A stretch of DNA of 63,700 bases, the filler included, from Candidatus Tectimicrobiota bacterium (GTDB lineage: Bacteria; JACPSX01): NCBI GenBank assembly GCA_016193065.1. It is 5 parts of 5 records of this genome, joined end to end, with 100 filler letters (N's around TTAATTAATTAA, not from the genome) between each part and the next. Parts side by side here need not be neighbours in the genome. Positions count along the whole stretch, not along the records: positions 32,740 to 49,719 come from JACPSX010000055.1; 4 more parts are not named here. One strand, written 5' to 3'. The translations under genes were made by a program, and so were the position numbers. The notes below the pieces were generated by a model. The model was not told the origin of the DNA. It searched no databases and worked only from the letters and a program-made list of their open reading frames with translations. This document shows positions 2,477 to 62,701 of the stretch, one piece after another (position 1 is the stretch's first letter; each line of letters begins with the position of its first letter).

Positions 2477-3652
2477 CTAGGAGGCATGGGCGGCCGCTTT
2501 TTCCTCGGTTTCTACGGTGCTTAGGATATCGCGGGCCTCCTTGAACTTCGGCTCCAGCTCCAGGGCCTTGCGAAACTCCGCGGCGGCCTTGTGCTTTTCC
2601 CCCGCCTCCAGATAGGCCCTCCCCACGTTGTAGTGGAGGACCTCGTCTTCGGGGTCCACCGGGAGGGCCTTCCAGTATTCGTTGATCGCATCCTGATACC
2701 GCCCCTGTTTGCGGAAGGCAATTCCCAGCCGGTTGTAAATATGAACGTCCTGTGGTCTGAGCTTAAGGGCTTCCTGGAAGGCATTGCCGGCCTCCTCCGC
2801 CATTCCGGCTTCCAGGAAGGCTTCCCCGATCTGCATGCGGCGGTCGACGTTGCGAGGGTCCACGTCAACGGCCTTGCTGAAAGCCTGGCGGGCCAGATCC
2901 CCTTTTCCCTCTTTGAGGTAGAGGTGCCCGAGCGCTGTCTGCCGATCCGGATTCCGGGGGCTGATCTTTACGGCGCGCTCCAGAGATTCACGGGCTCTGT
3001 CCCGCTTCCCGCTCTTCTCGAAGTAGTCCGCCAGTGTCTGATACCCCTTGACGTACTGCGGATTTAAATTGATGGCCTCCAGATACTTTTCCTCCGCTTC
3101 CGCTTTTTTCCCCATCTGTTCGTACACTTTCCCGATTCCCTCCAGGACCCGGGCGCTCCTGGGCTTTAGCTCCAGGGCCTTCTCGTACCTGGAGAGTGCT
3201 TTGTCCAGGTGTCCTGCCTCGGCGTCACTTTGAGCGGCTTGCAGCAGGGAATCAAGTTCCGTGGGATTTGCCCTGTGCTCCAGGATTTTTTCGATCTTCT
3301 CCTGCAGAGTGCGGGCCACGAAGGGTTTGATGATGTAGCCGTCCACCTCGGTTTCGGCGGCCTCGGCCACGGTTTCTTCGGCAATCTCCGCAGTCACCAT
3401 GAGGAACGGGATATCTTTGAGCCTGTCGTCTTTGCGGGCCAGGCGTAGGAGTTCAATCCCGGTCATCTCGGGCATGTTCCAGTCGGCGATGACAAAATCG
3501 ATCTTGTGGTGCTTCAACTTGTCCAGGGCTGAGACACCGTAGTCAGCTTCCTCAAAATGAACGTACCCCAGGTGCCTGAGCATATTGCGGATGGTCCGGC
3601 GCATGTTCGCCATGTCATCCACGATGAGAAAGCGCATCTTCGTGTTGGGCAT
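2477..3652 (-). CDS. CheY-like response regulator fused to TPR repeats
   Basis: LIVDD, DWNMPEMTG, LMVTAE and YIIKPF receiver motifs, followed by several TPRs. Confidence 0.9.
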   Translation of the reverse strand: MPNTKMRFLIVDDMANMRRTIRNMLRHLGYVHFEEADYGVSALDKLKHHKIDFVIADWNMPEMTGIELLRLARKDDRLKDIPFLMVTAEIAEETVAEAAETEVDGYIIKPFVARTLQEKIEKILEHRANPTELDSLLQAAQSDAEAGHLDKALSRYEKALELKPRSARVLEGIGKVYEQMGKKAEAEEKYLEAINLNPQYVKGYQTLADYFEKSGKRDRARESLERAVKISPRNPDRQTALGHLYLKEGKGDLARQAFSKAVDVDPRNVDRRMQIGEAFLEAGMAEEAGNAFQEALKLRPQDVHIYNRLGIAFRKQGRYQDAINEYWKALPVDPEDEVLHYNVGRAYLEAGEKHKAAAEFRKALELEPKFKEARDILSTVETEEKAAAHAS

Positions 3653-3681
3653 ACTCGGTCCTTCCCCGGCTTAGCGGGCCG

Positions 3682-4446
3682 TCAGGATTCCAAACTCGTC
3701 CCGGTTCCCACCGGGATCTCAATCCCAAAGGTGCTTCCCTGGTGGTCCTGGCTCTGCACCCAGATCCGGCCGTTGTGAGCCTCGACGGCCATCTTACAAA
3801 AGGTAAGCCCCAGCCCCGTGCTCAGGGGTCTCTTCTTGCCATCCCGTTCAACCTGGGCAAACTTGTGAAAGATCAGTTCCTGGTATTGGTGAGGAATTCC
3901 CTTGCCTTGATCCGTGACCGTGAGCACGACCTGATCCTCGCTCCGGGAACGGGAGAGTTTCAGGACGATCACTCCGTCTTCCGGAGAGTATTCGATGGAA
4001 TTCATGAGCAGATTGAGAACAACCCGCTCCAAGAGGGTGCGGTCCCCCGTGATCGGAACTTCCCCGGCGCCCCTCTGCAAGTCGAAGCGAACCTGTTTAG
4101 CGGCCGCTGTTTTGTGCAGGGACGACATACAGGACTGGACGACCTCTCGAAAGTCGAACTCGTGTCGGTGGACGACCAGGCGCCCCTCTTCCATCTTGTG
4201 AATGTCGAGAAGGTTTAGGACCATCTGGAGGAGGGTATTACAGCCTTGCTGGGCCGTTTCCACGTAGTCCCGCTGGTCTCCCGAGAGATCCTCAGAAGCC
4301 AACAGATCCAGGTTGGCCATGATTTCTCCCAGGGGACCCTTAATATCGTGGATCAGCATGGCCGTCTGCTCTTGCTGCAATGCCAGGAGTTCCTGCAGGC
4401 CCTCAATGTCCCCCTTACGTTTTCTTGTCTTTGCTGTAGCTGGCAC
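3682..4446 (-). CDS. Soluble histidine kinase (HisKA + HATPase) with no sensor domain
   Basis: H-box IHDIKGPL, N-box NLLMNSIEYS, DQGKGI and TGLGL. Confidence 0.85.
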   Translation of the reverse strand: MPATAKTRKRKGDIEGLQELLALQQEQTAMLIHDIKGPLGEIMANLDLLASEDLSGDQRDYVETAQQGCNTLLQMVLNLLDIHKMEEGRLVVHRHEFDFREVVQSCMSSLHKTAAAKQVRFDLQRGAGEVPITGDRTLLERVVLNLLMNSIEYSPEDGVIVLKLSRSRSEDQVVLTVTDQGKGIPHQYQELIFHKFAQVERDGKKRPLSTGLGLTFCKMAVEAHNGRIWVQSQDHQGSTFGIEIPVGTGTSLES

Positions 4447-14908: not shown

Positions 14909-15942
<1,034 letters not shown>

Positions 15943-19160: not shown

Positions 19161-20354
19161 TTATTTCCCCCGCGCTCCTGTGGAAGCCCGGCGGCGCCCG
19201 GACCTCGCCCCTCCGGGTTCCGCCAGCGCCGTTCCCCGGCAGTACACCCGGGGAACCCTCTTGGACACCCAACAGTAAATTTCATAGGGAATCGTCTTTA
19301 GCGCCAAGGCCCAATCCTCAGCGGAAATTTCCTGGTCCCCTTGTCGACCCAGGAGAACCACCTCGTCCTCCACCTGGACTCCGGGAATGTCCGTTACATC
19401 CACCATGATCAGGTCCATGCAGACCCGGCCGATCAAGGGTGCCTTCTGGCCCCGCACGAGCACACTCCAGCAATTGGACAGGAGTCGGTTCAATCCATCC
19501 GCATAGCCCACGGGAAGGGTGGCGATCCGGCTCGGGCGCTCCGTGCGGAAGGTGCGCCCGTAGCTGATGAAGGAACCGGCTGGCATCTCCTGAACCTGCA
19601 AGACCCGCGTCTTCCAGGTCATGACGGGACGCAGGGAGACCCGCCGCACCATTTGAGGGGAAGGATAGGAACCGTAGAGCATGATGCCGGGCCGGACCAT
19701 CTCAAAGTAGGCCTGGAAGCCGTCCAGGAGAATGGCACTGTTGGCGGCATGCCGTCGGGGAACCGCAATTCCACGTTCGCGAATCTCATCGGCCGCCTTT
19801 CGAAAAACCTCCACCTGGTGCTCCGTGTAGCTCTTGTCGGGGTCGTCGGCGCTGGCGAAGTGGGTCAAAATTCCGGCAATTTCAACCCCGGCCTCCCGCG
19901 CCATTTCCAGCGCGGCAGGTCCGACCTGGTCGGGCAAAAGACCCAGACGCCCCATGCCCGTGTCGACTTTGATGTGAATGGGCGACCGCTTCCCCTTGGC
20001 CCGGGCCGCCAGGCCCAGGGCTCGGACCACGGGAAGAGACCAGACAACCGCCTCCAGGTCTCCAGCCACGACCTGTGGAGCCTGCTCGGGAAAGATGCCT
20101 CCCAGCACAAGGATAGGCGCCTGGATCCCCCCCTCCCGGAGTTCGAGGCCTTCCTCGACCCGGGCCACTCCGAGGCCGAAGGCCCCCTGCCGAATGAGCT
20201 CCCGGCCCACGGCGACAGCCCCGTGCCCGTAGGCATCCGCCTTCACCACGGCCAGGATGTCCACCTGCTTTCCAACCTGGGCACGTACGGCGGCCAGATT
20301 GTGGGCCAGAGCGTCGAGGTCGATAATGGCCTGGCTTGCTCCTGCTTTAGTCAT
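19161..20354 (-). CDS. alr: Alanine racemase
   Basis: AVVKADAYGHG (PLP lysine), HIKVDTGMGRLG, VRPGI and GRVCMD. Confidence 0.95.
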   Translation of the reverse strand: MTKAGASQAIIDLDALAHNLAAVRAQVGKQVDILAVVKADAYGHGAVAVGRELIRQGAFGLGVARVEEGLELREGGIQAPILVLGGIFPEQAPQVVAGDLEAVVWSLPVVRALGLAARAKGKRSPIHIKVDTGMGRLGLLPDQVGPAALEMAREAGVEIAGILTHFASADDPDKSYTEHQVEVFRKAADEIRERGIAVPRRHAANSAILLDGFQAYFEMVRPGIMLYGSYPSPQMVRRVSLRPVMTWKTRVLQVQEMPAGSFISYGRTFRTERPSRIATLPVGYADGLNRLLSNCWSVLVRGQKAPLIGRVCMDLIMVDVTDIPGVQVEDEVVLLGRQGDQEISAEDWALALKTIPYEIYCWVSKRVPRVYCRGTALAEPGGARSGRRRASTGARGK

Positions 20355-21615
20355 CGTAGCCTTTGGCGAGGTTTTCAAACCTGGTGTACTCTTTGAGGAA
20401 GACCAGATCGAAACTCCCGGTGGGCCCGTTGCGCTGTTTGCCGATGATCACCTCGGCAGTCCCCGGCTTTTCTTCCGTGTATACCTCTTCCCTGTAGAGG
20501 AACATAACCACATCCGCATCCTGCTCGATGGCGCCCGATTCTCGCAGATCCGAGAGCATGGGCCGCTTGTCGGTGCGGCTCTCCACGTTGCGGCTGAGCT
20601 GGCTGAGCGCCACCACCGGGCAGCGCAGCTCGCGGGCCAGGGCCTTGAGCGAGCGGGAGATCATGGAGATCTCCTGGGTGCGGTTCTCGATCTCCCGCCC
20701 GCGGGCCTTGGCCCGGATATTCAAGACCGAAAGGGCCGGGGAATCATCGATGAAAATTGGGGCCTCGTAGAGGGCCGCCGCGGCCCGGGCCAGGGCAGTG
20801 TGTTCTTCTTTGCGCAGGAAACCGGTCCGTACGCTCGTGGAGTTGACCCGCGCATCGGAGCACAGCAGGCGGATGCCCAGTTGCTCCTTGCTCATCTCCA
20901 GGCTGAAAACGGCCACCGGGAGCTTGGCTTCCACGGCCACGTAGCGGGCGATGTTCAGGGAGAAGCTGGTCTTCCCCATGCTGGGACGGCCCGCGATGAC
21001 GATTAGATCGGAGGGTTGAAACCCCGCAGTCCTTTCGTCGAGATCTTTAAAACCGGTAGGGACTCCGGTGACGAGTTCTTTGCGATCGTAGAGGCTCTCG
21101 ATGTGCCGCAGGCTCTCCTTGACCACTTGATCGAGGCTTACGAAGGCGGGCTGGATCCGCCGTTCGGAAATCTCGAAGATAGCCCGCTCCGCTCGGTCCA
21201 GCAGGACGTCCACGTCCTCACTCTCTTCGTAGCTTTGAGTAACGATCTCGGTGGCGGACTGGATGAGGCTGCGCACAACATATTTCTCCCGCACAATCAT
21301 ACTGTGAAACCGAACGTTGGCTGCCGTAGGAATCATGTCCGTGAGGCTGGCCAGGTAAGCCACCCCACCCACAACCTCGAGTTCCCCCCGGGCTCGCAGG
21401 CGTTCTTGCAGGGTCAACAGGTCGATGGGCTCACCCCGCTCGAAGAGATCGAGCATGGCCTGGAAGATCTTGCGGTGTGCCCCGCTGTAAAATTGGTCTT
21501 CCTGCAGAATGTCCAGCACTCGGGACAGCGCTTCATTTTCTCTGAGAATGGCGCCCAACACGCATTGCTCAGCTTCCAGATTCTGAGGCGGAAGTCTGTG
21601 AATCGCCGTCTCCAA
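20347..21615 (-). CDS. dnaB: Replicative DNA helicase DnaB with an in-frame deletion of the DYLQL segment near 20700
   Basis: PPQNLEAEQ, GRPSMGKT, LSQLSR and LRESGAIEQDAD. RAKAR is joined directly to GREIENRTQE. Confidence 0.93.
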   Translation of the reverse strand: METAIHRLPPQNLEAEQCVLGAILRENEALSRVLDILQEDQFYSGAHRKIFQAMLDLFERGEPIDLLTLQERLRARGELEVVGGVAYLASLTDMIPTAANVRFHSMIVREKYVVRSLIQSATEIVTQSYEESEDVDVLLDRAERAIFEISERRIQPAFVSLDQVVKESLRHIESLYDRKELVTGVPTGFKDLDERTAGFQPSDLIVIAGRPSMGKTSFSLNIARYVAVEAKLPVAVFSLEMSKEQLGIRLLCSDARVNSTSVRTGFLRKEEHTALARAAAALYEAPIFIDDSPALSVLNIRAKARGREIENRTQEISMISRSLKALARELRCPVVALSQLSRNVESRTDKRPMLSDLRESGAIEQDADVVMFLYREEVYTEEKPGTAEVIIGKQRNGPTGSFDLVFLKEYTRFENLAKGYDD

Positions 21616-25598: not shown

Positions 25599-25698
25599 NN
25601 NNNNNNNNNNNNNNNNNNNNNNNNNNNNNNNNNNNNNNNNNNTTAATTAATTAANNNNNNNNNNNNNNNNNNNNNNNNNNNNNNNNNNNNNNNNNNNN
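25599..25698. other. Artificial contig linker
   Basis: N-run + TTAATTAATTAA (stops in all six frames) + N-run. Confidence 0.98.
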
Positions 25699-32639: not shown

Positions 32640-32739
32640 NNNNNNNNNNNNNNNNNNNNNNNNNNNNNNNNNNNNNNNNNNNNTTAATTAATTAANNNNN
32701 NNNNNNNNNNNNNNNNNNNNNNNNNNNNNNNNNNNNNNN
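32640..32739. other. Artificial contig linker
   Basis: N-run + TTAATTAATTAA + N-run. Confidence 0.98.
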
Positions 32740-34187
32740 TTCCGGTCTTCCGCGGCGACCGTCAACAAGTGGCGGGGCTGGTCGCGATCAGTTACTTCCT
32801 TCCGGAGGGGCTGGCCACCAAGGTCTACGACATCAAAGAGGCATTTGAGGAATACAAGCAGAAGAAGATCTTCAAGGCTCCGATCAAAGCGCAGTACGTG
32901 GTGCTTTTCCTGATGTTCACGCTCTTGATCGTGTTCTCGGCCACCTGGTTTGGTTTTTATCTGGCCAAGGGGATCACGGTTCCCATCCAGGAACTGGTGG
33001 AAGGAACCCGGGCCATCGCGGGCGGCAAGCTGGACTTTACCATCAGCGCGCGTGCTGACGACGAGATCGGCATGCTGGTGGACTCCTTCAACAAGATGAC
33101 CGCGGATCTTCACCGCAGCCAGCAGGAACTCGAGCGCACGAACGCGGACCTGCGCCAGACCAATGTGGAGTTGGACCAGCGCCGCAGCTACATGGAAACG
33201 GTCCTGGAAAACATCACGACGGGGGTTCTCTCTCTGGATCCGAAGGGCCGGATTACCACCTTCAACCGGGCCGCCGAGCGCATCCTGGGGATCGATGCGG
33301 CCAGCGCCAAGGGGCGGCACTATCGGACCGTTTTCCGCTCCGATCACATGGATCCCGTGCGGGCTCTCATGAAAAAGATGAACGAAAACGGAGCCACGAG
33401 CACGACGGCCCAGATGCAGCTCTCTTCCGGGGGGCGAAAGATCACCCTGATCACCAGCGTGACTCACCTGCAGGACCGGGAGGGGAACTTCCTGGGAATG
33501 GTCATCGTGTTTGACGATTTGAGCGAGCTCATCAAGGCCCAGAGGACCGCGGCCTGGCAAGAGGTGGCCCGGGGAATTGCTCACGAGATTAAGAACCCCT
33601 TGACCCCCATTCAGCTCTCCACCCAGAGACTCCGCAAGAAGTTGGTGGAGGTCATCAAAGGGATGGTTGACGAGTTTTCGAAATTCGCCCGCATGCCCCT
33701 GCCGAACCCCAAACCCAACAATCTGCATCAGATCATTGAGGACGCCACGGGCCTGTACCGGACTTCCGTGCGAAAAATCGAGATCACCTCGTCCTACGAT
33801 CCGAATGTGCCTGTCATGGAGCTGGATCGCGAGCAGATGCAAAGGGTGTTCATCAACCTGCTGGAGAACTCGGTGGATGCCACACAGGGGAAGGGACGCA
33901 TCGAGATCCGGACCTCCCTGGACGCGCAGCGCCAGAGGGTCTCCATCGAGGTGAGTGACGACGGGGTCGGCATTCCCGCAGAGGACCGGGACAAGCTCTT
34001 TGCGCCGTACTTTTCCACGAAGAAGAGGGGTACGGGATTGGGACTTGCCATCGTCCAGCGAATCGTGGCGGATCATAACGGCACGGTCTACGTGCAGGAT
34101 AACAAACCCCGCGGCACGAAATTCGTGATTGAACTTCCTCTGGGACCCCACAAGGCCCAAGCCAGCAAGAAGATCATTTCGGTCTAG
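32740..34187 (+). CDS. ntrY: NtrY-like HAMP-PAS histidine kinase (5' end truncated; short in-frame deletion near 33643)
   Basis: TM, HAMP (DEIGMLVDSFNKM), PAS, AWQEVARGIAHEIKNPLTPIQLS and GTGLGL. Confidence 0.88.
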
Positions 34188-34200
34188 GGGAGGAAGCATC

Positions 34201-36402
34201 TTGAAAAAGGGCAGTATTCTGATCGTCGATGACGAGAAGTCCATCGTTTCCTCCCTGGAGGGAATTTTGGAAGACGAGGGCTTTCAGGTGATCAGCGCCA
34301 AGGATGGTCAGCAGGCCCTGCAGATTATCCGGGGGCAAAACCCCGACCTGGTCCTCCTGGACATCTGGATGCCGGGAATGGACGGCATCGAGGCTCTGCA
34401 GGCCATCAAGAACCTGAGGGCCGACCTGGGAGTCATCGTCATGTCCGGCCACGGCAGCATCGATACGGCCGTCAAGGCCACCAAGCTTGGTGCTTTTGAT
34501 TACATCGAGAAGCCTCTCTCGATGGACAGCCTCCTCCTTACCGTGAAGCACGCCCTGGAACAGCAGCGGCTTTTGCGACAGAATGTGGAGCTGAAGCGCA
34601 GAGCCAACAAGGGGGAGAATCTGGTCGGCGAGAGTTCCCGGACCCTGGCGGTCCGCAAAAGGGTTGCAGCCGCGGCCCGGCGGGATGACCCGGTCATGAT
34701 CCTGGGTGAAAACGGGACCGGAAAGGAACTGGTGGCGAGGCTGATCCATCGGGAAAGCGGGCGGCGGGATGCCCCGTTTGTCAAGCTGAACTGCTCGAGT
34801 CTCCCCGCCGAGGATTGGAAACGAGTCTTGTGGGGGGCCGAGGGAGCCGCCTCCAAAGAAGGGGAATTCACCCAGGGGAAGCTCGCCCAGGCCGAAGGGG
34901 GCACCCTGTTCTTGGACGACGTGGAATATCTGGGGCCGGAGATCGAGGCGGCCCTGGCCCGCTCTCTGAAGAGCAAAACCTTTACCAGGGCAGGCAGGTC
35001 CGAAACTCTCCCCCTGGACGTGCGGATTATGGCCGCCACCACCAAGCCCTGGACCCGCGGAGATCTGGTCGGCAACCTGTCCTCCGAGTTCCTGGCCTTG
35101 TTTTCCTCTGCGCCGATCCAACTGCCTCCGCTGCGCCAGCGCAAGGAGGACATTCCCGCGCTGGTAGATCATTTTCTCCGGGAACTGGCGGAGGAATACG
35201 GCAGGGGGAGCAAGGAGATGGATGAAGCGGCCATGCAGATTCTGATGAATCATGACTGGCCCGGCAACGTGAAGGAGCTGCAGAACATCCTGGAGCGGAT
35301 CTTCATCACAGTACCCTGGGCCCGGATTTCGCGGGAGGATATCCCCGCCGCGATCCGCAAGAACCCGGCACTGGCCGGAAACGGGTCCGCGTGGGACGGC
35401 GCGCAGTCACTGAAGGATGCCCGCAGGTTGTGGGAGCGGGAATTCATCGGCTACAATTTGCGCCGCCATCGCGGCAGCCTGGCCAAAACGGCCGGGGAGC
35501 TTGGGATTTCTGTTCCCAGCCTGGAGCAGAAGATCAAATCTCTGAAAATCTTCGTTCCCAGGAGGGGTGAGTTCCAACCTCAAAGGAGCCTGAAGAGAAG
35601 CGTGGTGCTGTGCGGACAGGGGCTCCACTCCGGACTCAAGGGCGGGTTGATACTGAACCCCCTGCCTCCCAACAGCGGGATCCATTTCGGGAACATCACC
35701 TCGGGCGAGAGTATCCCGGCCTTGGTGGATTACGTCTATTCAGCGGAGTACGCGACCTCTTTGCGAAGGGGCGTTGTGATTGCCCGCACCATCGAGCACT
35801 TGATGGCTGTCCTGCACATGTACGGAATCTCGAACCTGCTGGTCAAGATCAACGATGAGGTCCCCATCATGGATGGCTCGGCGCTGGACCTGTGCCAGTT
35901 GATCGAGGATGGCGGCGTCGAGGAACAGGGGGCGGAGGCGGAGGAGATCATCGTGAAGGAAACCGTCACCGTGGGCAATCCGCAAAACGGCGGCAAGCAC
36001 ATCCGGATCGAGCCCGCGCAGACTCTTAGTGTCACCTATATCCTGGACTATCCTCGTCCGATCGGTCACCAGGAGTTTACCTTTACCCCCTGCGGAGTTG
36101 AGGACTTCAAGCGGGAAATCGCTCCGGCGCGGACCTTCGGCTTTCTCAAGGACATCGAGAAGCTGGAACAGATGGGGCTGGGAGGAGGGGGCCGCCTGCA
36201 CAACGTGATCCTGGTGGATGAGGACAGAATCATCAACGCCCCCTTGCGGTTTCCCGATGAGTTCGTGCGCCACAAGATCCTGGACGTGCTCGGGGATCTC
36301 TACCTGCGGGGGAAGCGGATCCGGGGGAAGGTCACGGCCTGCATGACAGGTCACGCGGACAACGTGGAGTTGGTTAGGCGGATCGGGGCGGCTCAGCTAT
36401 GA
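34201..36402 (+). CDS. lpxC: Fusion of an NtrX-like receiver, degenerate sigma54-type AAA+ and HTH with LpxC (UDP-3-O-acyl-GlcNAc deacetylase)
   Basis: Receiver [36 protein letters not shown]; then [41 protein letters not shown] and GH. TTG start after GGAGG. Confidence 0.88.
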
Positions 36403-37375
36403 TTACCTACCGCGACGCCGGGGTAGATCTGAATGCGGCCGGGGCCCTGGTCGGCAAAATTGCGGCTCTGGCCCGATCCACGTTTCGCCCCGAGGTCCTG
36501 ACGGATATCGGGGGGTTTGCCGGACAGTTTCGGCTTCCCGCCGGATACCGGGAGCCCGTGCTGGTGGCCTCCACGGACGGGGTTGGCACCAAGGTGAAAA
36601 TTGCCCAATCTCTGGGCCTCCACCATACGGTGGGCATCGATTTGGTGGCCATGTGCGTCAACGATATTGCCGTCCAGGGGGCCGAACCCTTGTTCTTTTT
36701 GGATTATCTGGCCACCGGCCGGCTCGATCTGGGGGTGGTCGAGAAGATCATCGAAGGGATCGTGCGGGGGTGTAAGCAGGCCGGGTGCGCCCTGCTGGGC
36801 GGGGAGACGGCCGAGATGCCCGGGCCATCGATGGTCGTTTCATCGAAAAGGGGGACACCGTCGTGGGGATTCCTTCCAGTGGGCTCCACAGCAACGGCTA
36901 TTCCCTGGTGCGGAAGGTGCTGGAGACGGCCGGCCTTCATCTGGAAGAGGTTGTGTCTGGGCTGGGGCGGAGTCTCGGGGAAGAGCTCCTGGAGCCTACC
37001 CGCATCTACTCCCCCCTGATGCAAGGCCTGATGGCACGCTGCCCGATCCGCGGGGCGGTTCACATTACAGGAGGGGGGTTGATCGAGAACATTCCTCGTA
37101 TCTTGCCCCGGGGGTTGGGAGTCGATCTCGACCCGGGGAAGTGGAGGATCCCGCCAATCTTCGAGCTGTTGCGGGAAAGGGGCGGCATCCCGCGCGAGGA
37201 AATGTTCCGCGCCTTCAATATGGGGGTCGGAATGGTCTTGATCCTGTCCGGCAAGGATGCTGGCGAGGGTCGGGAATGGCTGCAGGGGCAAGGAGAGGAG
37301 TCCTTCCTCATCGGGGAGGTCATCGAACTGCCGGAGTCGGAGACCTGTCGGGTAAAGATCTCGGGAGGAACATGA
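36399..37375 (+). pseudogene. purM: AIR synthetase PurM, frameshifted by an internal deletion as assembled (probably artefact)
   Basis: [16 protein letters not shown] and GGETAEMPG in one frame; [17 protein letters not shown] and FNMGVG in another. Junction near 36822. Confidence 0.88.
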
Positions 37376-49719: not shown

Positions 49720-49819
49720 NNNNNNNNNNNNNNNNNNNNNNNNNNNNNNNNNNNNNNNNNNNNTTAATTAATTAANNNNNNNNNNNNNNNNNNNNNNNNN
49801 NNNNNNNNNNNNNNNNNNN
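49720..49819. other. Artificial contig linker
   Basis: N-run + TTAATTAATTAA + N-run. Confidence 0.98.
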
Positions 49820-49821
49820 GC

Positions 49822-52395
49822 GTGACACAAGACGAGTGGGTGTATAGCTGGTGCCGCCAATGCGCACTACCCCCCTGCGGAATCAAGGCACACGTTCGGG
49901 ACGGAGTGGCCGTCAAGGTGGAAGGAGATCCGCAGTGCCCCACCAATCAGGGCATGCTGTGCTCCAGGGGGCACTCCGCCATCATGACCCTCTACAACCC
50001 CTACCGGGTCAAGACCCCTCTGAAGCGCACCAACCCGAAAAAGGGCCTGGACCAGGATCCGGGCTGGAAGGAGATCAGTTGGGAGGAAGCCCTCGATACG
50101 ATCTCCAAGGAGCTCCGGCGGGTGCGTGCGGAGGACCCGCGCAAGTTCGTGTTCAACAACGGCTTCGCGCGCTGCGGGAGCATGCTGGAAGGCATGGAGT
50201 TTTGCGCCGCCTTCGGCACCCCGAACTACGTGGAAGTGGACGGCCCCACCTGCTCGGTGCACTTCGGCTCTTCCCTCGTCCTGGGGAATTTCACGGGGCC
50301 CCGATTCGACGACCGCTACACGAACTACACGATCCTGATGGGACAAGGCAGTACGGCCAACGGCGGGTACGCGGCCGGCACCAGGGAGATCATGGATGCC
50401 TTGGAGCGGGGGATGAAGCTCGTCGTGGTCGACCCCCGCTGCTCCGTGGAGGCATCCAAAGGAGAATGGATCCCTATCCGACCCGGCTCCGACATGGCCT
50501 TCGTCCTGGCGCTCCAGCACGTGATCCTGTATGAAATCGGCCGCTACGACGCGGACTTCCTCAAGACCCGCACCAACGGCCCCTATCTCATCGGCCCCGA
50601 CGGCCATTACGTGCGGCACAAGGCATCGGGCAAACCGTTGATGTGGGACGTCGCGGCAGGGAAAGCCAAGACCTTCGATGATCCGACCGTCCAGGACGTA
50701 GCGCTGGAAGGCGAGTACACCATGAGCGGCGTCCCTTGCCGGCCGGCCTTCCAGATCTACCGGGACGCCATGGCCCCCTACACGCCGAAATGGGCGGAAG
50801 AGAAGACCTCGATCCCGGCCGTGACCATTCGCCGGATCGCCCGGGAATTCGTCGACGCCGCCCGGATCGGTAGCACGATCACCCTCGACGGCATGGCGTT
50901 TCCGCTGCGCCCGGCTTGCCTGCAGGCCGGTCGCGGCGCCATCACCCAGTATTACGGCGGGAACCTCCACACCGCCGTCGTTCTGGTGAACATGCTGGTG
51001 GGGGCTCTGGACGTGCCCGGCGGCGGACGCGGCACCACGGGACCTCCTCACAAGAGCACTCCTCCTCCCCTGGCCCTCAAGCCGGACGCCGACGGCGTCG
51101 TGGCCCCCAAGGTGGAGGCCGTCCCGAGGGCGTTCGAATTCCCCCCGAACCAACTCGACGGCAAGACCTACATGCCGTTCTCCCATGACAACCCTCACGT
51201 CGTGTACCACGCGATCCTGCACCCGGACCAGTACCACATCGGCTACAAGCCCGAGGTGCTCATGTTGTGGGCCGGCAACCCGGTGCTCCGCATGTACCGT
51301 CCGGAGCCGGTCATCGACGCCATGCGCACCTTCAAGTTCGTCTTCGCCCTCTCCTACAGCTTCGACGAGCCCACCGAGTTGGCGGACGTGGTATTGCCCG
51401 AGACCACCAGCTTGGAGCGCTGGTCGTGCGGCGGCGGCGCGGCTCTTATCGACACCAAGGCCGGCCCCAAAAACGCCGTGGCGCGGCTCATCGCCCGGCC
51501 CGTCGTGAAGCCTCTGTACGACACCCGCCAGGTGGACGAAGTTTTCATGGAGCTCGGCCGCCGGATCGGGATCCTGTTCGGGCCCGGCGGCATCAACGAC
51601 CTGTTCAACTCGGGACGGTACGCTCCCCCGAGAGTTCAGGATCCCTACAAGCTGGCCCTCGACAGGCAATACACCCCCAAAGAGATCGTGAACCTCGTGG
51701 TCAAGTCCGACTTCGGCCCCAAGGCCGACCCGGAGGCGTTGCGCAACAAGGCAAGCTGCCTCGTCAAGTACCTGCCGCACAAGCTGTTCTACCCCTACAC
51801 CGGCTTCCCCGCCGGAAAGACGCGCTACCCCATTTACCAGGATTATCTCAAGCGCGCCGGCGAGGAGCTGTACGCGAACCTGAAGGCCGCCGGGGCCACG
51901 CTGCCCGGCTGGAAGCTCGACGCCATGATCGCGCACTATCAGCCCGTGCCGGTGTGGCTGGAACCCAATCGCTCGGCCCCGGCTGGCTACGACCTGTATG
52001 CGATCAACTGGAAGACGGCGCAGTTCTCCTTCGGGGCGGGCGCCACGCTGGAGAACCCTTGGCTGCAGGAAGTGTCGGCGCAATTCGACCCCTACGTGCT
52101 GGTCGTCTGCCTGAACCGCAAGACCGCGCGAGCCCGGGGGCTCAGGGACGGAGACGAGGTCTGGGTGGAATCCATGTACGGCGGCAAGGTGCGCGGCAAG
52201 GTCAAGATTTCCGACCTCTTCCACACGGAAGCCGTCGGCATCGCGGGAAATTACGGACATATCAGCAAGCAAATGAATCCCGGCGCCCGCGTGGGGATCC
52301 ATTTCAACACGCTCATGTCCACGGAGCCGGGGGACATCGATCCGATCAGCGGCGGCTTCGACGGCGCCCCCAAGGTCAGGCTGTACAAGGCCTAG
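49822..52395 (+). CDS. Mo/W-bis-PGD (DMSO reductase superfamily) catalytic subunit, PadB/dehydroxylase-like
   Basis: N-terminal CRQC...C...C FeS motif, PLKRTNPKKG..DPGW.EISWEEALD, VVVDPR, PIRPGSD and ADVVLP. Confidence 0.9.
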   Translation: MTQDEWVYSWCRQCALPPCGIKAHVRDGVAVKVEGDPQCPTNQGMLCSRGHSAIMTLYNPYRVKTPLKRTNPKKGLDQDPGWKEISWEEALDTISKELRRVRAEDPRKFVFNNGFARCGSMLEGMEFCAAFGTPNYVEVDGPTCSVHFGSSLVLGNFTGPRFDDRYTNYTILMGQGSTANGGYAAGTREIMDALERGMKLVVVDPRCSVEASKGEWIPIRPGSDMAFVLALQHVILYEIGRYDADFLKTRTNGPYLIGPDGHYVRHKASGKPLMWDVAAGKAKTFDDPTVQDVALEGEYTMSGVPCRPAFQIYRDAMAPYTPKWAEEKTSIPAVTIRRIAREFVDAARIGSTITLDGMAFPLRPACLQAGRGAITQYYGGNLHTAVVLVNMLVGALDVPGGGRGTTGPPHKSTPPPLALKPDADGVVAPKVEAVPRAFEFPPNQLDGKTYMPFSHDNPHVVYHAILHPDQYHIGYKPEVLMLWAGNPVLRMYRPEPVIDAMRTFKFVFALSYSFDEPTELADVVLPETTSLERWSCGGGAALIDTKAGPKNAVARLIARPVVKPLYDTRQVDEVFMELGRRIGILFGPGGINDLFNSGRYAPPRVQDPYKLALDRQYTPKEIVNLVVKSDFGPKADPEALRNKASCLVKYLPHKLFYPYTGFPAGKTRYPIYQDYLKRAGEELYANLKAAGATLPGWKLDAMIAHYQPVPVWLEPNRSAPAGYDLYAINWKTAQFSFGAGATLENPWLQEVSAQFDPYVLVVCLNRKTARARGLRDGDEVWVESMYGGKVRGKVKISDLFHTEAVGIAGNYGHISKQMNPGARVGIHFNTLMSTEPGDIDPISGGFDGAPKVRLYKA

Positions 52396-52414
52396 AAAGG
52401 AGCAGGTGAATACC

Positions 52415-53086
52415 ATGCGTTACGGGATGGTGATTGATCTGGATCGCTGTGTGGGGTGCAACGCCTGCACGGTGGCCTGCAAGGCCGAGAACGGCACACC
52501 CCCGGGCATCTTCTGGCAACGCATGCTCTTGACCGAGCGCGGCCGCTACCCCTTCGCCCGCCTGGAGGCCACCCCCCTGCCCTGCATGCACTGCGAGGAG
52601 GCCGCCTGCGTCAAGGTCTGCCCCACCGGCGCCTCCTCCAAACGAAAGGACGGCCTCGTGCTCATCGACGCCGACAAGTGCATCGGCTGCCGCTACTGCA
52701 TGGTGGCCTGCCCCTACGGCGCCCGAAGCTTCAACTCCGGGGCCCGCCCCTACTACCCCGGCAAGGGCCTCACCCCCTACGAAAAAGTGCGCTACCAGGA
52801 GCACCCCGCCGGCAAGGTCGAGAAGTGCACCTTGTGCTCGCAGCGGGTCGACAAGAAAGAGGAGCCCGCCTGCGTGGCCACCTGCATCGCCAAGGCCCGC
52901 TTCTTCGGCGACCTCGACGACCCCAACAGCGAGGTCTCCCAGCTCATCGCCCGCAAGGGCGGCTATCAACTGCTCCCCGAAAAGGGGACCAAACCCCAGG
53001 TCTACTACGTGGGAGGAGGTAAACGACGGTGGATACGCAGAGAACTGGCCAAGGCATCCTCAGCGGCTCAAGTCTCGCTCTCCTGA
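52415..53086 (+). CDS. Four-cluster 4Fe-4S subunit (DmsB/NrfC/PadC-like)
   Basis: CVGCNACTVAC, CMHCEEAAC..VCP, CIGCRYCMVACP and KCTLC...PACVATC. Confidence 0.93.
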   Translation: MRYGMVIDLDRCVGCNACTVACKAENGTPPGIFWQRMLLTERGRYPFARLEATPLPCMHCEEAACVKVCPTGASSKRKDGLVLIDADKCIGCRYCMVACPYGARSFNSGARPYYPGKGLTPYEKVRYQEHPAGKVEKCTLCSQRVDKKEEPACVATCIAKARFFGDLDDPNSEVSQLIARKGGYQLLPEKGTKPQVYYVGGGKRRWIRRELAKASSAAQVSLS

Positions 53087-54144
53087 TCCTGTTCGCGGCC
53101 GGCGTCCTGCTCTGGCTCGTGCTGGGCGCCGCCACGGGCCTGGGGGAAACGACGGCCTTCGGTCTCTACGTGGCCGCCTTCTTCGCCCTGATGGCCGCCG
53201 GGGCCGGCCTGCTCATCTTCTCGGCCCTGCCCGACACCCTGGGCTTCTCCGCCCTCCAGCCCCTCTCCGGCAAGGCCAACCTGCTGGCTCTGGCCTGCTT
53301 GGTAGGCGGGGGTCTCTTCATCCTGGCCGACGTGGGCAGCCCCCTGACCTTGTGGCGCATGCTCACCGGGCCCAACGTCTCCTCCCCCTTCGTCTGGGAT
53401 CTGCTCTTCTTCGCCGCCGCCTTCGTGCTCGGAGCGGCCTTCCTGCCCGTGAGCCTGCAGAAGCGGGAGGCCAAAGGGCTCTCCTGGGTGTTGAGCCTGA
53501 TCTGCCTGGCTCTGCTGGTCGTGGAGGGCTCCATTGTGGCCACGGTGTGGAGCAACCCCCTGTTCGTCGCCGGCTTCGTGGTCACGGGGCTTCTGGCCGG
53601 GGGAGCCCTCCTGCTGTGGCTCGCCCCGACCGACTCGCCGCCGGAACTCATCCGGCCCCTGTGCACCACCCTGGCCTCGCTCATCGCCGCCTGGCTCTTC
53701 TTCAGCCTCCTCGATCCCCTGACCGCCCTGTTCCTGGGCGCGACCGAGGTGGGCGAGACGGCCCGCCTGATCCTGGCCGGGCCCTACAGTCCCCTGTTCT
53801 ACGTCCAGATCCTGATCCTCGGGGTCCTCCCTCTGGTCCAGTTCGCCCGCAAGAAAGAGGCCGGTCTCACCTACGGGCAGGGAGTGGCCGCGGGTCTCGT
53901 GCTCCTGGGGGTGTTCGTGGACAAGTACATCGTGCTGGTGCCCCGGCAGATGAATCCCGCCATCGCGTTCCCGAGCACCCCCTTCACGGCCGGACCCGCC
54001 TATGCCGCCACGGTGGCCGAGTGGTCCCTGACCATCGCCCTCCTGGCCCTGGTGGGACTTCTCTACACCCTGGCCGCCCGCACCATGATCCGCGAGGTCC
54101 CGGCCGCCGCTCAACTCCCCTTCGAACAGAGGAGAGTCGCCTGA
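53029..54144 (+). CDS. NrfD/PsrC-family membrane anchor
   Basis: Multi-TM protein with ADVGSP, PNVSSPFVWD and DKY. Confidence 0.85.
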   Translation: MDTQRTGQGILSGSSLALLILFAAGVLLWLVLGAATGLGETTAFGLYVAAFFALMAAGAGLLIFSALPDTLGFSALQPLSGKANLLALACLVGGGLFILADVGSPLTLWRMLTGPNVSSPFVWDLLFFAAAFVLGAAFLPVSLQKREAKGLSWVLSLICLALLVVEGSIVATVWSNPLFVAGFVVTGLLAGGALLLWLAPTDSPPELIRPLCTTLASLIAAWLFFSLLDPLTALFLGATEVGETARLILAGPYSPLFYVQILILGVLPLVQFARKKEAGLTYGQGVAAGLVLLGVFVDKYIVLVPRQMNPAIAFPSTPFTAGPAYAATVAEWSLTIALLALVGLLYTLAARTMIREVPAAAQLPFEQRRVA

Positions 54145-54155
54145 TAGGAGGGCAA

Positions 54156-54887
54156 ATGAACCGAGAGGAAACGATTTCGCACCAAGAGATGGCCGACCTG
54201 GCCCGCCTGCGCAGCCAGACCTACGGCTTCCTGGGCTCGCTGTATATCCAGAGACCCGACCCGGCCTTCGTCGGGCGGCTCACGGACGGCGCCATGATCT
54301 CCCTGCTGAATTCCATGACCTGCGGGGAAGCGTCCGGAGAAATCGCAAGCGGTCTCGAGCTCGTGAAACGCTACCTGACGAGAATCCGGGAAATGCCGGC
54401 CCAGGAGATAGAGACGGAGCTGGCCGTGGAGCGCACCAGGCTGCTGCGCGGGATCAAGCCGGGCTACGGTCCTCCACCGGCCTACGAGTCCGTGTACGCG
54501 GGGTCCGACGAGCAACCGTTGATGCAGACCAGCGTGGCGGTGGCCCGAGCATACGCCGAGGCCGGCGTGGGACTGCCGGAGGAGGTGCGGGACCAGCCCG
54601 ACTTCATCGGCTTCGAGCTGGACTTTCTGCGCCATCTCACGGACAAGGAGGCCCGGGCTTGGGCCTGCGGTGACCGTGGGGAAGCGTTCAAGCTTCTTGA
54701 GAAAGAGCGGGCCTTTCTGGACGAGCACGCGGCCGGCTGGATCCCGCGCTTCTGCGACCTGATGTTTCAGGACGCGAAGCTCGACTTCTACCGGGGCGTC
54801 GCCCGCCTGACCAAGGCTTTCGTGACAGACGAGGTCCGCCGGTTGGTGGATCTCCAGAATTGGGCCCGCGCTGCCCGGGCAGCATAA
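54156..54887 (+). CDS. TorD/DmsD-family molybdoenzyme chaperone
   Basis: PPAYESVY, QPDFIGFELDFL and FLDEH..WIPRF. Confidence 0.88.
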   Translation: MNREETISHQEMADLARLRSQTYGFLGSLYIQRPDPAFVGRLTDGAMISLLNSMTCGEASGEIASGLELVKRYLTRIREMPAQEIETELAVERTRLLRGIKPGYGPPPAYESVYAGSDEQPLMQTSVAVARAYAEAGVGLPEEVRDQPDFIGFELDFLRHLTDKEARAWACGDRGEAFKLLEKERAFLDEHAAGWIPRFCDLMFQDAKLDFYRGVARLTKAFVTDEVRRLVDLQNWARAARAA

Positions 54888-57940: not shown

Positions 57941-58040
57941 NNNNNNNNNNNNNNNNNNNNNNNNNNNNNNNNNNNNNNNNNNNNTTAATTAATTAANNNN
58001 NNNNNNNNNNNNNNNNNNNNNNNNNNNNNNNNNNNNNNNN
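57941..58040. other. Artificial contig linker
   Basis: N-run + TTAATTAATTAA + N-run. Confidence 0.98.
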
Positions 58041-61365: not shown

Positions 61366-61404
61366 TGCACCGAGAACTGTGCAATTTGCACATGGATTTG
61401 TGCA
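61366..61404. promoter_or_regulatory. Tandem palindromic TGCAC-N8-GTGCA sites (probable enhancer-binding-protein UAS)
   Basis: 61366-61383 and 61387-61404, spaced 21 bp apart. Confidence 0.7.
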
Positions 61405-61501
61405 ACGCTTTCGTCGCGGCCGGACACGGGAAAAAATTACCTGCAACCCATTATCTTCCATGAGGTACCCGGGGACACTTTTCTCTGCGGGCGCCGTGTC
61501 G

Positions 61502-61517
61502 CGGCACCATTCTTGCT
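61502..61517 (+). promoter_or_regulatory. sigma54 (-24/-12) promoter
   Basis: CGGCACCATTCTTGCT fits GG-N10-GC and is close to the TGGCAC-N5-TTGCW consensus. Confidence 0.7.
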
Positions 61518-61606
61518 TTCGAAATTGGTATCTATCTTTCCCACGGCAACAGAGACGCAACCCACGGAAATGGCCACTGAAACTCCTGCCTCCAGAAGGA
61601 GCCGCC

Positions 61607-62701
61607 ATGGACACCACGAATGACCTCCACGAGAACATCATCGAAAGCCTCACCTCCGGCCTCATGGTCATCGATTCCCGCACGTTTCAGATCCTGAGCT
61701 TCAACAAGGCGCTGGAGCGGATCACGGGTCTTTCCCGAACCCAGGTCCTCAACAGGTCCGTCGAGGAAGTTTTCTCTTACGTCCAGGGACTCTCCTGCGC
61801 GGACCTGGCCCGGGAGATGTGGGAAAAAGGGGTGGTCACCCGCCCCCGCATGCGCGTCACCCGTCCCACGGGGGAGGACGTGTACCGGGGACTCAAGGCC
61901 GAGCCCCTTTATTCCCGCCAGGGGGAGGCGATGGGGATCGTCGTGCACATTGAAGACGTGACCGAGCGGGAGATCCTGCGGGAGAGCTTCAGCCGCTACG
62001 TGGCCCACCAGGTCGTGGAGGCGATCCTCTCCGAGAAGCAAAAACTCAACCTCTCCGGGTGCCGGCAGGAAGTGACGATCCTCTTCGCCGACATTCGCGG
62101 GTTCACGGAGCTCGCCGAGAGCCAGGAGCCGGAAGCGGTGGTCTCTCTCCTGAACGGATACTTCTCCCGCATGGTCGACGTGGTCCTCAAATACGAGGGG
62201 ACGCTGGACAAGTTCGTGGGAGATACCGTGATGGCCGTCTTTGGCGCCCCCATGAGCCGGGAGGATGACACCGAGCGGGCCCTGCGCGCCGCCATTGAAA
62301 TGCAATCCGAGATGGTGCGCTTCAACGCCGAGCGGGAGGAGGCAGGCGAAGAGCCCATCCACATCGGCATCGGCATCAATACGGGGATCGCCATCGTGGG
62401 CAACGTGGGCTCCGAGAAGCGCATGGACTACACGGTGATCGGCGACGCCGTCAACGTGGCCGACCGCATCCAGAACCTCTCCCGCGGCGGCGAGATCCTG
62501 GTGAGCGAGCACACCTACCGCAAGGCGAGCCAGGTGATCCGGGGAAGACCTCTATCCTCGGGACGAGTGCGGGGGAGGGTGAACCCCGTGAAGATTTACC
62601 TGATTGAAGGGCTCAAGGAAGAGGGTGCTCCGGAAGACTCGCAGGCATTGGAAAAGAACGCGGCCACCTCGGATTTCACCTCCGCGAGCCTCTCAATCTG
62701 A
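61607..62701 (+). CDS. PAS-domain class III adenylate cyclase
   Basis: PAS domain, LFADIRGFT, LDKFVGD (K), RMDYTVIGDAVNVADR (D, N, R). RBS AGGAG. Confidence 0.92.
   Translation: MDTTNDLHENIIESLTSGLMVIDSRTFQILSFNKALERITGLSRTQVLNRSVEEVFSYVQGLSCADLAREMWEKGVVTRPRMRVTRPTGEDVYRGLKAEPLYSRQGEAMGIVVHIEDVTEREILRESFSRYVAHQVVEAILSEKQKLNLSGCRQEVTILFADIRGFTELAESQEPEAVVSLLNGYFSRMVDVVLKYEGTLDKFVGDTVMAVFGAPMSREDDTERALRAAIEMQSEMVRFNAEREEAGEEPIHIGIGINTGIAIVGNVGSEKRMDYTVIGDAVNVADRIQNLSRGGEILVSEHTYRKASQVIRGRPLSSGRVRGRVNPVKIYLIEGLKEEGAPEDSQALEKNAATSDFTSASLSI

Follow-up and report, generated by a model that had tools for sequence, protein, structure and literature searches.

What does a response regulator control when the last domain of its own chain is LpxC, the enzyme of the committed step in making lipid A? 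The question is raised by a gene at 34201..36402 (+ strand) in a 63 700-nt stretch of DNA from a Candidatus Tectimicrobiota bacterium (GenBank assembly GCA_016193065.1), the whole of which is called the window here. In 733 codons and a stop, this gene joins a receiver domain (REC), a degenerate sigma54-type AAA+ domain with its lid, a helix-turn-helix (HTH) and a complete LpxC, as seen from the open reading frame, Pfam and NCBIfam matches, homologues and bridging metagenome contigs, and it follows the gene of an NtrY-like sensor histidine kinase. The answer proposed here is that the kinase probably controls lipid A synthesis directly through the fused LpxC. Most likely, an activator dedicated to lpxC captured its own target and now controls it post-translationally, the last step being one that we infer.

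A single gene shared by many genomes

The fusion is real and not an artefact. Among the homologues listed, 120 of 120 share the architecture (701–773 aa, 46–85% identity, PF00072 + PF00158 + PF03331), and their source names include Nitrospinae, Tectomicrobia, Schekmanbacteria and Thermodesulfobacteriota. A cluster of the same architecture in the ESM Atlas has 381 members, with Nitrospinota as the commonest phylum. A preliminary description of this locus, made from the sequence by itself, had suspected that databases might already hold the architecture, and they do, under the names LpxC or NtrX only. It is not described in print as far as our searches reach: they found no account of a receiver–LpxC protein or of LpxC as an output domain, and the words "fusion" and "fused" are absent from a review of lipid A regulation.

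An apparent fusion can arise in assembly or gene calling if two genes, ntrX and lpxC, lose the stop and start that separate them, and the window does have internal losses elsewhere, of 63 nt in ntrY and ~64 nt in purM. The warning of deletion artefacts in the preliminary description is borne out for these two genes but not for the HTH–LpxC junction, which is crossed with 0 gaps by independently assembled contigs from four groundwater metagenome runs of one study (X1, 34540–36288; X2, 33644–35749; X3, 33644–36288; X4, 35303–36765). The four runs may include the window's own source sample, so they check the assembly and not occurrence elsewhere. In addition, the window and the contig of the closest relative (L001, 85% protein identity) are colinear through the whole gene, linker and LpxC start (PQRTLKRSV) keep the frame and are conserved, and the same single frame recurs in all the listed homologues, which come from many assemblies. 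We regard an artefact at the junction as having next to no probability.

A separate LpxC made from an internal start was rejected, as no usable start of this kind exists. The first in-frame ATG, GTG or TTG after the HTH is GTG 35602, which lies inside the conserved first strand of LpxC; the earlier remark was that this LpxC lacks a Met where it begins. The AGGAGG at 35560–35565 encodes Arg-Arg in frame, and the nearest in-frame GTG, within that first strand, is 36 nt further on.

Domains and residues of the fusion protein

The frame 34129..36402 (+) is open for 757 aa from a TTG, and the start was placed at TTG 34201 by homology with 733-aa relatives (P0001 and the protein of L001). Pfam matches are quoted below in the 757-aa numbering, from which 24 is subtracted to obtain residues of the 733-aa protein. 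The receiver spans residues 6–115 (34216..34545, +; Response_reg PF00072, 30–139, 112.5 bits) and has D10, D11, D54 (in LLDIWMP), S82 and K104-P105, which are invariant or nearly so in 121–129 fused proteins; in 129 proteins with the full architecture, called long forms here, conservation is 90% or more at D10, D11, D54 and K104. The codon of the phospho-acceptor, Asp54, is at 34360–34362. Downstream lie the sigma54-type AAA+ core at residues 141–283 (34621..35049, +; Sigma54_activat, 165–307, covering only positions 1–144 of 168 of the profile), the well-conserved AAA+ lid domain at residues 312–389 (35134..35367, +; AAA_lid_14, 336–413, 87.1 bits) and a Fis-type HTH at residues 411–446 (35431..35538, +; HTH_8, 435–470). 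The HTH_8 (PF02954) match is weak, at 20.7 bits vs a cut-off of 22 bits, and is precomputed for 20 of the 120 homologues listed; long forms can still be seen to have this region, its consensus being similar to A..LGI....L.RKI..LGI. For residues 1–450 as a whole, the best NCBIfam model is NtrX (NF051870), at 373.7 bits and thus below its equivalog cut-off of 600 bits.

An unconserved linker of ~14 residues (35539..35580, +), delimited by the conservation profile and free of gaps in the four bridging contigs, leads to a complete LpxC domain at residues 461–728 (35581..36384, +; PF03331, 485–752, profile positions 1–266 of 268), the match coordinates of which place the start of LpxC at about nt 35581. 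The scores lie above the cut-offs for both PF03331 (263.5 vs 27 bits) and NCBIfam TIGR00325 (243.7 vs 187.25 bits). The whole LpxC part aligns with Pseudomonas LpxC (4fw3), and the TIEH, HKILD..GD, TGH and ARTFGF motifs match. E532, H533, H691, K692, D695, D699 and H718 are invariant in the 129 long forms; the E and H of TxEH, the H, K and D of HKxLD, the D that follows and the H of GH are residues that we take to have zinc-ligand or catalytic roles. The Pfam and NCBIfam matches, that to the HTH being below threshold, agree with the preliminary description of an intact receiver, AAA+, HTH and full LpxC in a frame of ~733 aa, and the alignment to 4fw3 supports its statement that the zinc and catalytic motifs of LpxC are kept. 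In an AlphaFold2 model built with 129 homologues, every domain is folded confidently (mean predicted local distance difference test, pLDDT, 87.4); the position of the GAFTGA loop, residues 216–222, is among three low-confidence stretches.

Decay of the AAA+ domain

Judged from aligned motifs, the decay of the AAA+ domain is specific to the fusion. In an alignment with Aquifex NtrC4 of solved structure (3dzd), GAASKEG of the window protein occupies the position of GAFTGAL; its Walker B is LFLDDV vs LFLDEV, and SSEFLALF replaces REDLYYRL in the arginine-finger region. This alignment, together with one to Brucella NtrX (5m7n), upholds the degeneracy of all three motifs noted in the preliminary description. 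The same pattern runs through the family: a GAFTGA-like motif is found in 0/124 long forms vs 64/76 of the closest unfused relatives, the arginine-finger motif in 0/124 vs 73/76, and the Walker B Asp-Glu in 40/124 vs 75/76, while the sensor II consensus has Lys for Arg (GNVKEL in long forms vs GNVREL in the closest unfused relatives). Walker A (GENGTGKE) is still conserved in long forms, with G169, E170, G172, G174, K175 and E176 at least 90% conserved, and so are the lid motifs. Since Walker A and lid are kept and the motifs for hydrolysis and sigma54 contact are lost, the middle part looks like a putative nucleotide-binding module that neither hydrolyses ATP nor contacts sigma54. The fusion is also old, as had been proposed from the decay, since the fused clade reaches down to ~40% identity and no member among the 124 has GAFTGA.

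Brucella NtrX (5m7n, 5m7o, 5m7p) is a useful comparison here. The match of the window protein to 5m7n is full-length, with 273 bits, and loss of GAFTGA is by itself not diagnostic because Brucella NtrX lacks this motif too. However, LDEV and REDLFHRL are kept in 5m7n and absent from the window protein. On the evidence of these motifs, the fusion is therefore set apart by having also lost the glutamate of Walker B, the arginine fingers and the arginine of sensor II.

The decay bears on a different way of explaining the gene, in which the fusion is passive: one chain would serve co-expression and equal dosage, the receiver would control DNA binding only, and LpxC would work independently of phosphorylation. 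The recognisable HTH of long forms fits such an arrangement, and bifunctional LpxC fusions without regulatory coupling do exist, e.g. LpxC-FabZ (NF009667, a model against which the LpxC part scores 190.7 bits). Against it, the sigma54-contact loop and arginine fingers are lost in 124/124 long forms.

Unfused relatives cluster with lpxC

What did the regulator control before it was fused? A scan of species-representative genomes gave 79 loci, of which 3 are fused (L001–L003) and 76 unfused, the latter from Geobacter and other Desulfuromonadales, Desulfobacterales, Rokubacteria/Methylomirabilota and others. In 59 of the unfused loci, an NtrY-like kinase gene upstream and sufficient flank allow assessment, and a separate lpxC lies on the same strand directly upstream of ntrY-ntrX in 45 of these; the other unfused loci comprise 14 with flank but no lpxC, 11 with too little flank and 6 without such a kinase. 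A gene for a DUF4390 protein sits between lpxC and ntrY in many unfused loci. Directly upstream of ntrY, DUF4390 is a constant companion of both the fused (L001 3734–4330) and the unfused loci.

Promoters point in the same direction. With a sigma54-type promoter defined as TGGCAC-N5-TTGCA matched in at least 9 of 11 positions, GG and GC being required, no more than 350 nt upstream of lpxC, such promoters are found upstream of lpxC in 32/42 unfused loci (33 hits vs 0.99 expected from the rate in the same loci), most of them 32–93 nt from the lpxC start codon. Moreover, TGTC-N7-10-[GC]ACA palindromes lie 60–160 nt upstream of the promoter in 16 of the 32 loci, with 0.0165 expected per search window. 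These palindromes are often paired, at ~90 and ~126 nt upstream of the promoter (loci L005–L079). Sigma54 control of the committed step in making lipid A seems widespread outside Proteobacteria in the strict sense. On the coding strand of the fused loci L001 and L003 and in the window at 32740–36500, searches for the sigma54-type promoter and for the TGTC...ACA site gave no hit, a further point against the passive arrangement.

A link between a two-component system and lpxC has already been shown experimentally in Desulfovibrio (PMC3333781, PMC4045070). In D. vulgaris, the sigma54-dependent regulator DVU2934, in which GAFTGA is present, has lpxC as its single target, and the authors noted that the operon of the orthologous regulator in Syntrophobacter fumaroxidans has lpxC directly upstream (PMC3333781, PMC4641369). 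In D. alaskensis G20, the kinase Dde_3000 acts on Dde_3003, for which lpxC, with a sigma54 site and a GTGT...CACACA regulator site centred at –101, is the only target (PMC4045070). A kinase and an NtrC-family regulator dedicated to lpxC, as in DVU2931/DVU2934 and Dde_3000/Dde_3003, thus have the same logic as the unfused relatives of the window protein: the lpxC neighbour, sigma54 promoter and palindrome of the DVU2934 type are all found with these relatives, and they do not apply to the fused gene. In contrast, the Desulfovibrio system has a regulator with GAFTGA that acts on the transcription of a separate lpxC, whereas here the two are covalently joined and the sigma54-activating features are lost. 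Because the nearest relatives without a fusion have intact features of sigma54 activators and are encoded in clusters with lpxC, the fusion joined a regulator to its own target.

A different arrangement is seen in Nitrospira-type loci (L023, L032, L037, L062), which lack an upstream lpxC and in which purM comes after an unfused ntrX, just as it comes after the fusion in L001, L003 and the window. The setting in which the fusion took place may have resembled this one.

Short forms and repeated loss of the AAA+–HTH block

A search in which the LpxC domain served as the only query, among proteins of 151–483 aa, revealed a second architecture. Among the best 120 hits, 93 are REC–linker–LpxC proteins of ~425 aa with linkers of 21–84 residues, 11 are fragments of long forms, and 16 have LpxC only, all of these on contigs of ~1–3.2 kb; contigs as long as 1.99 and 5.5 Mb carry some of the short forms. 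One short form, P0129, is 48% identical to the window protein in the receiver and 65% in LpxC. Intermediates also occur among representatives at 50% identity, namely REC–HTH–LpxC (P0247, P0250) and proteins with a partial AAA+ core (e.g. P0245). In 129 long and 109 short forms alike, the acidic pocket, phospho-Asp and Lys of the receiver and the catalytic residues of LpxC are invariant or at least 90% conserved.

In a FastTree tree built from 287 LpxC domains, every LpxC linked to a receiver falls into a single clade (stem 0.84, support 100) relative to the unfused lpxC of related loci. An IQ-TREE analysis was run on concatenated REC and LpxC columns of 70 rows chosen by us, i.e. the 50% representatives, rows from each FastTree group and 14 of 42 unfused pairs. 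The fused clade has 100% support in this tree, and long and short forms are interleaved within it, with 10–11 parsimony changes, of which at least 4–5 are forced by starred branches. At the tips, the long P0096 pairs with P0247 (REC–HTH–LpxC), and the long P0079 falls within a short-form group. A single split between long and short forms is rejected by the approximately unbiased (AU) test for a group that was named after the tree had been seen (log-likelihood difference 329.7, p-AU 9.5e-47). Since independent gain of a homologous AAA+–HTH block is implausible, the interleaving is read as repeated deletion of this block. Thus, the trees suggest that AAA+–HTH was lost repeatedly while REC and LpxC were retained as a core. 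REC–LpxC was also considered as the ancestral form, as short forms are basal in the FastTree tree of LpxC only, rooted on unfused genes; the pairs of long and shorter proteins at the tips of the REC+LpxC tree and the intermediates with a remnant HTH favour repeated loss instead.

These short forms also weigh against a passive fusion. The 93 REC–LpxC proteins among the best 120 LpxC relatives have kept the phospho-acceptor residues without a DNA-binding part, and a short-form receiver has nothing else in its chain to act on. Hence the output of the receiver in this family is most simply the enzyme, and we hold the passive fusion to be unlikely. The preliminary description had proposed that phosphorylation directly gates lipid A synthesis, possibly with DNA binding. 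That the receiver acts on LpxC and not on transcription has strong comparative backing from repeated loss of AAA+–HTH with phospho-acceptor and catalytic residues intact; the biochemical part of the proposal is taken up below.

The fused LpxC as the probable enzyme of the pathway

Is the fused domain the LpxC of the cell? Copies were counted in three fusion-bearing genomes (G001, G002 and G003), and the fusion is the only LpxC hit in two of the three, G001 and G003. G003 has it on one contig and strand with lpxD, lpxA and lpxB; the gene order there is lpxA, oxidoreductase, lpxB, DUF374, DUF2889, dprA, ntrY, fusion, purM, purN, and lpxK and kdtA are found elsewhere in the genome. In G001, the genome of the closest relative (2.7 Mb), LptF, LptG and LptD are present. 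Sequence and gene context suggest that the fused LpxC is the pathway's enzyme, a putative deacetylase. The oxidoreductase between lpxA and lpxB in G003 is of the GFO/IDH/MocA type (L003 1035–1991) and may point to a modified (diamino-sugar) lipid A backbone, which is a lead only.

Enzyme-derived sensor domains are known in other regulators, and the LpxC domain could in principle be one of them, sensing UDP-acyl-GlcNAc or a lipid A precursor on behalf of the regulator instead of serving as the cell's enzyme. The separate LpxC of G002 would suit such a role. Yet none of the zinc ligands, the general base or the substrate-contact residues varies in the 129 long and 109 short forms, G001 and G003 have no LpxC hit other than the fusion, and the portion that decays or is lost is the regulator part, so that a ligand sensor appears very improbable.

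A model for direct control and its weak points

The following course of events would account for the family. The ancestor would have been a sigma54-dependent NtrX-like activator of the DVU2934/Dde_3003 kind, served by an NtrY-type kinase; in unfused relatives, such an activator is encoded in an lpxC-DUF4390-ntrY-ntrX cluster and drives lpxC from a sigma54 promoter. Once lpxC had been joined to the regulator gene at its 3' end, the AAA+ domain would have lost sigma54 contact and the capacity for ATP hydrolysis, and with them transcriptional activation, keeping Walker A and the lid; receiver and enzyme would have stayed under strong constraint as the AAA+–HTH middle turned into a scaffold, which in many descendants would have been deleted outright to leave REC–LpxC. 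In the present protein, NtrY would phosphorylate Asp54, and the phosphorylated receiver would alter the assembly state of the protein, in long forms via receiver dimerisation and the vestigial AAA+/HTH scaffold and in short forms by receiver dimerisation alone. As a result, the activity or stability of LpxC would be raised or lowered, and control of lipid A synthesis would shift from transcription to the protein itself. Given the flexible linkers, a change of assembly state through receiver dimerisation is the most economical idea. Taken as a whole, the explanation that a former activator was fused to its target and that a receiver phosphorylated by NtrY modulates LpxC is one that we favour with some reserve.

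Several points weigh against this model. The linkers of short forms, 21–84 residues long, are disordered, which argues against rigid allosteric coupling, and the relative placement of domains in the AlphaFold2 model is loose (predicted template modelling score, pTM, 0.50), so that no fixed arrangement of REC and LpxC is predicted, a feature that a passive fusion would also show. The one short-form locus with flank (L092) has no adjacent kinase gene; it came from a scan of metagenome contigs with the short-form alignment that returned mostly ordinary LpxC genes, the informative hits being L092 and L084, the latter a long-form fragment. The count of LpxC copies covers three genomes. In G001, the genome search gave no hits for LpxA, LpxB, LpxD, LpxK or KdtA, and this genome is probably an incomplete metagenome-assembled genome of an LPS-making organism. 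G002 has its second LpxC in a 440-aa frame inside a canonical lpx cluster, and its fusion lies on a 2.9-kb contig that is possibly mis-binned. The orthology of the unfused relatives to DVU2934 is deduced from synteny, promoter and site similarity. Finally, both phosphotransfer from NtrY and any effect of phosphorylation on LpxC activity are steps that we infer.

The flexible linkers are also compatible with a receiver that works like a tag or an adaptor. Phosphorylation might then set the amount or the location of the enzyme, as a proteolysis mark or through membrane recruitment, comparable to FtsH/LapB in E. coli, and leave catalysis as it is. LpxC is governed in other bacteria by turnover or partner proteins (PMC12444477), and the fused LpxC ends just past its last helix, at residue 733 vs 728 for the end of the Pfam match, with no C-terminal tail. 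Such control of stability or location is a serious alternative, but no conserved protease or adaptor gene lies beside the fusion in the window, L001 or L003; we judge it rather unlikely. Modulation of LpxC by its own receiver, as set out above, is the reading we retain.

A more sweeping version of the same idea, to which we give about even chances, is that these proteins constitute a widespread and so far undescribed class of response regulators with LpxC as output, in which a membrane sensor kinase would directly turn outer-membrane lipid synthesis on or off within seconds by phosphorylation, without transcription or proteolysis. The class would stem from a sigma54 activator dedicated to lpxC and fused to its target, the AAA+ domain of which would have become a nucleotide-binding, non-hydrolysing scaffold and then been discarded independently many times.

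Comparison with known systems

Response regulators with an enzymatic output are well known, among them the methylesterase CheB, the cyclases PleD and WspR and the phosphodiesterase RpfG. The short REC–LpxC form has their architecture of an N-terminal receiver, a linker and a C-terminal enzyme. Unlike in these proteins, the output here is an enzyme of envelope biosynthesis and not a signalling enzyme, and the long form holds a vestigial AAA+–HTH between receiver and enzyme.

To our knowledge, characterised controls of LpxC all run through separate partners (FtsH/LapB, MurA, Lon) or through transcription. FtsH/LapB in E. coli, activation by MurA in P. aeruginosa and Lon in alphaproteobacteria are of the former kind, whereas here LpxC and a putative control module make up a single chain, the module being wired to a sensor kinase. 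As for natural fusions of LpxC to a second domain, LpxC-FabZ is a precedent, but its partner is a C-terminal metabolic enzyme and the partner here is an N-terminal signalling module.

The resemblance to NtrY/NtrX of alpha- and betaproteobacteria extends to the kinase, the orthologue of which has NtrY_N and comes after a DUF4390 gene. In contrast, NtrX carries no enzyme domain and is reported to affect lpxC indirectly, at the level of transcription: NtrYX lowers lpxC mRNA in R. sphaeroides and Caulobacter (PMC7240162, PMC12444477).

The locus and its surroundings

The stretch consists of 5 contigs set end to end, with joins of the form N44-TTAATTAATTAA-N44 at 25599–25698, 32640–32739, 49720–49819 and 57941–58040. 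Since draft or metagenome-assembled contigs were joined in this way, gene order across the joins is without meaning. The fusion locus forms the start of the contig at 32740–49719, and the join at 32640–32739 cuts off the 5' end of the kinase gene, of which the 3' part (~480 codons) is present at 32740..34187 (+) with HAMP, PAS, HisKA and HATPase_c matches in Pfam. The HisKA match covers only positions 2–30 of 66 of the profile. In this region of ntrY, the 63 nt missing after 33643 in the window are present in the contigs of runs X1 and X3 and in L001, so the kinase of the source organism is most likely intact despite the gap in the window copy. The full-length orthologue in L001 has 770 aa, with NtrY_N and an intact HisKA; NtrY_N is found in the L001 and L003 orthologues at 40.0 and 31.1 bits, respectively (cut-off 23.2), and HisKA is full in both. 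These orthologues and the Pfam domains of the window copy are in line with the NtrY-like kinase of the preliminary description.

Downstream, the start of purM (36399..37375, +) overlaps the stop of the fusion gene, and the gene falls into two frames in the window (36399..37019 and 36785..37375), with a gap of ~64 nt at ~36822–36826 relative to L001, where purM is intact and encodes 346 aa; the metagenome contigs stop at 36821–36824, within purM. The genes 3' of the fusion are purM, purN, lolA, rseP, rimP, nusA, ylxR, infB, rbfA-nrnA, truB and pnp. Envelope genes of diderm type in the window encode MlaDEF, LolA and RseP, and no lpx gene besides the fusion is found in the window.

Similar losses of sequence may exist elsewhere in the window: tgt (15034–15942) covers only Pfam positions 2–196 of 357, and the DnaB_C match of dnaB (20350–21615) is split in two pieces. 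A further two-component pair is present at 2480–4446 (–), where a receiver-TPR protein, with a non-DNA-binding output, adjoins a small HisKA-HATPase kinase. At 61379–62698 (+), a fusion joins a PAS domain and the catalytic domain of an adenylate/guanylate cyclase, and a molybdopterin oxidoreductase, a 4Fe-4S subunit and a protein with a nitrate-reductase delta (chaperone) domain are encoded at 49822–54884 (+), on a separate contig.

Implications for envelope control and regulatory evolution

Lipopolysaccharide synthesis has its control point in LpxC, which is also a major target for antibiotics. If the reading given here is true, a receiver wired to LpxC would be a new, simple and testable mode of controlling envelope synthesis. 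The family also forms a natural series, from a separate regulator and target through a fusion with a decaying ATPase to a minimal receiver–enzyme protein, which illustrates how control can shift from transcription to the protein itself. Moreover, it supports a specific functional link between NtrYX and lpxC across several phyla, the earlier basis of which was a few model organisms, and for structural work it provides a naturally occurring pseudo-ATPase version of a bacterial enhancer-binding protein. The finding should thus be of interest for both envelope biology and regulatory evolution.

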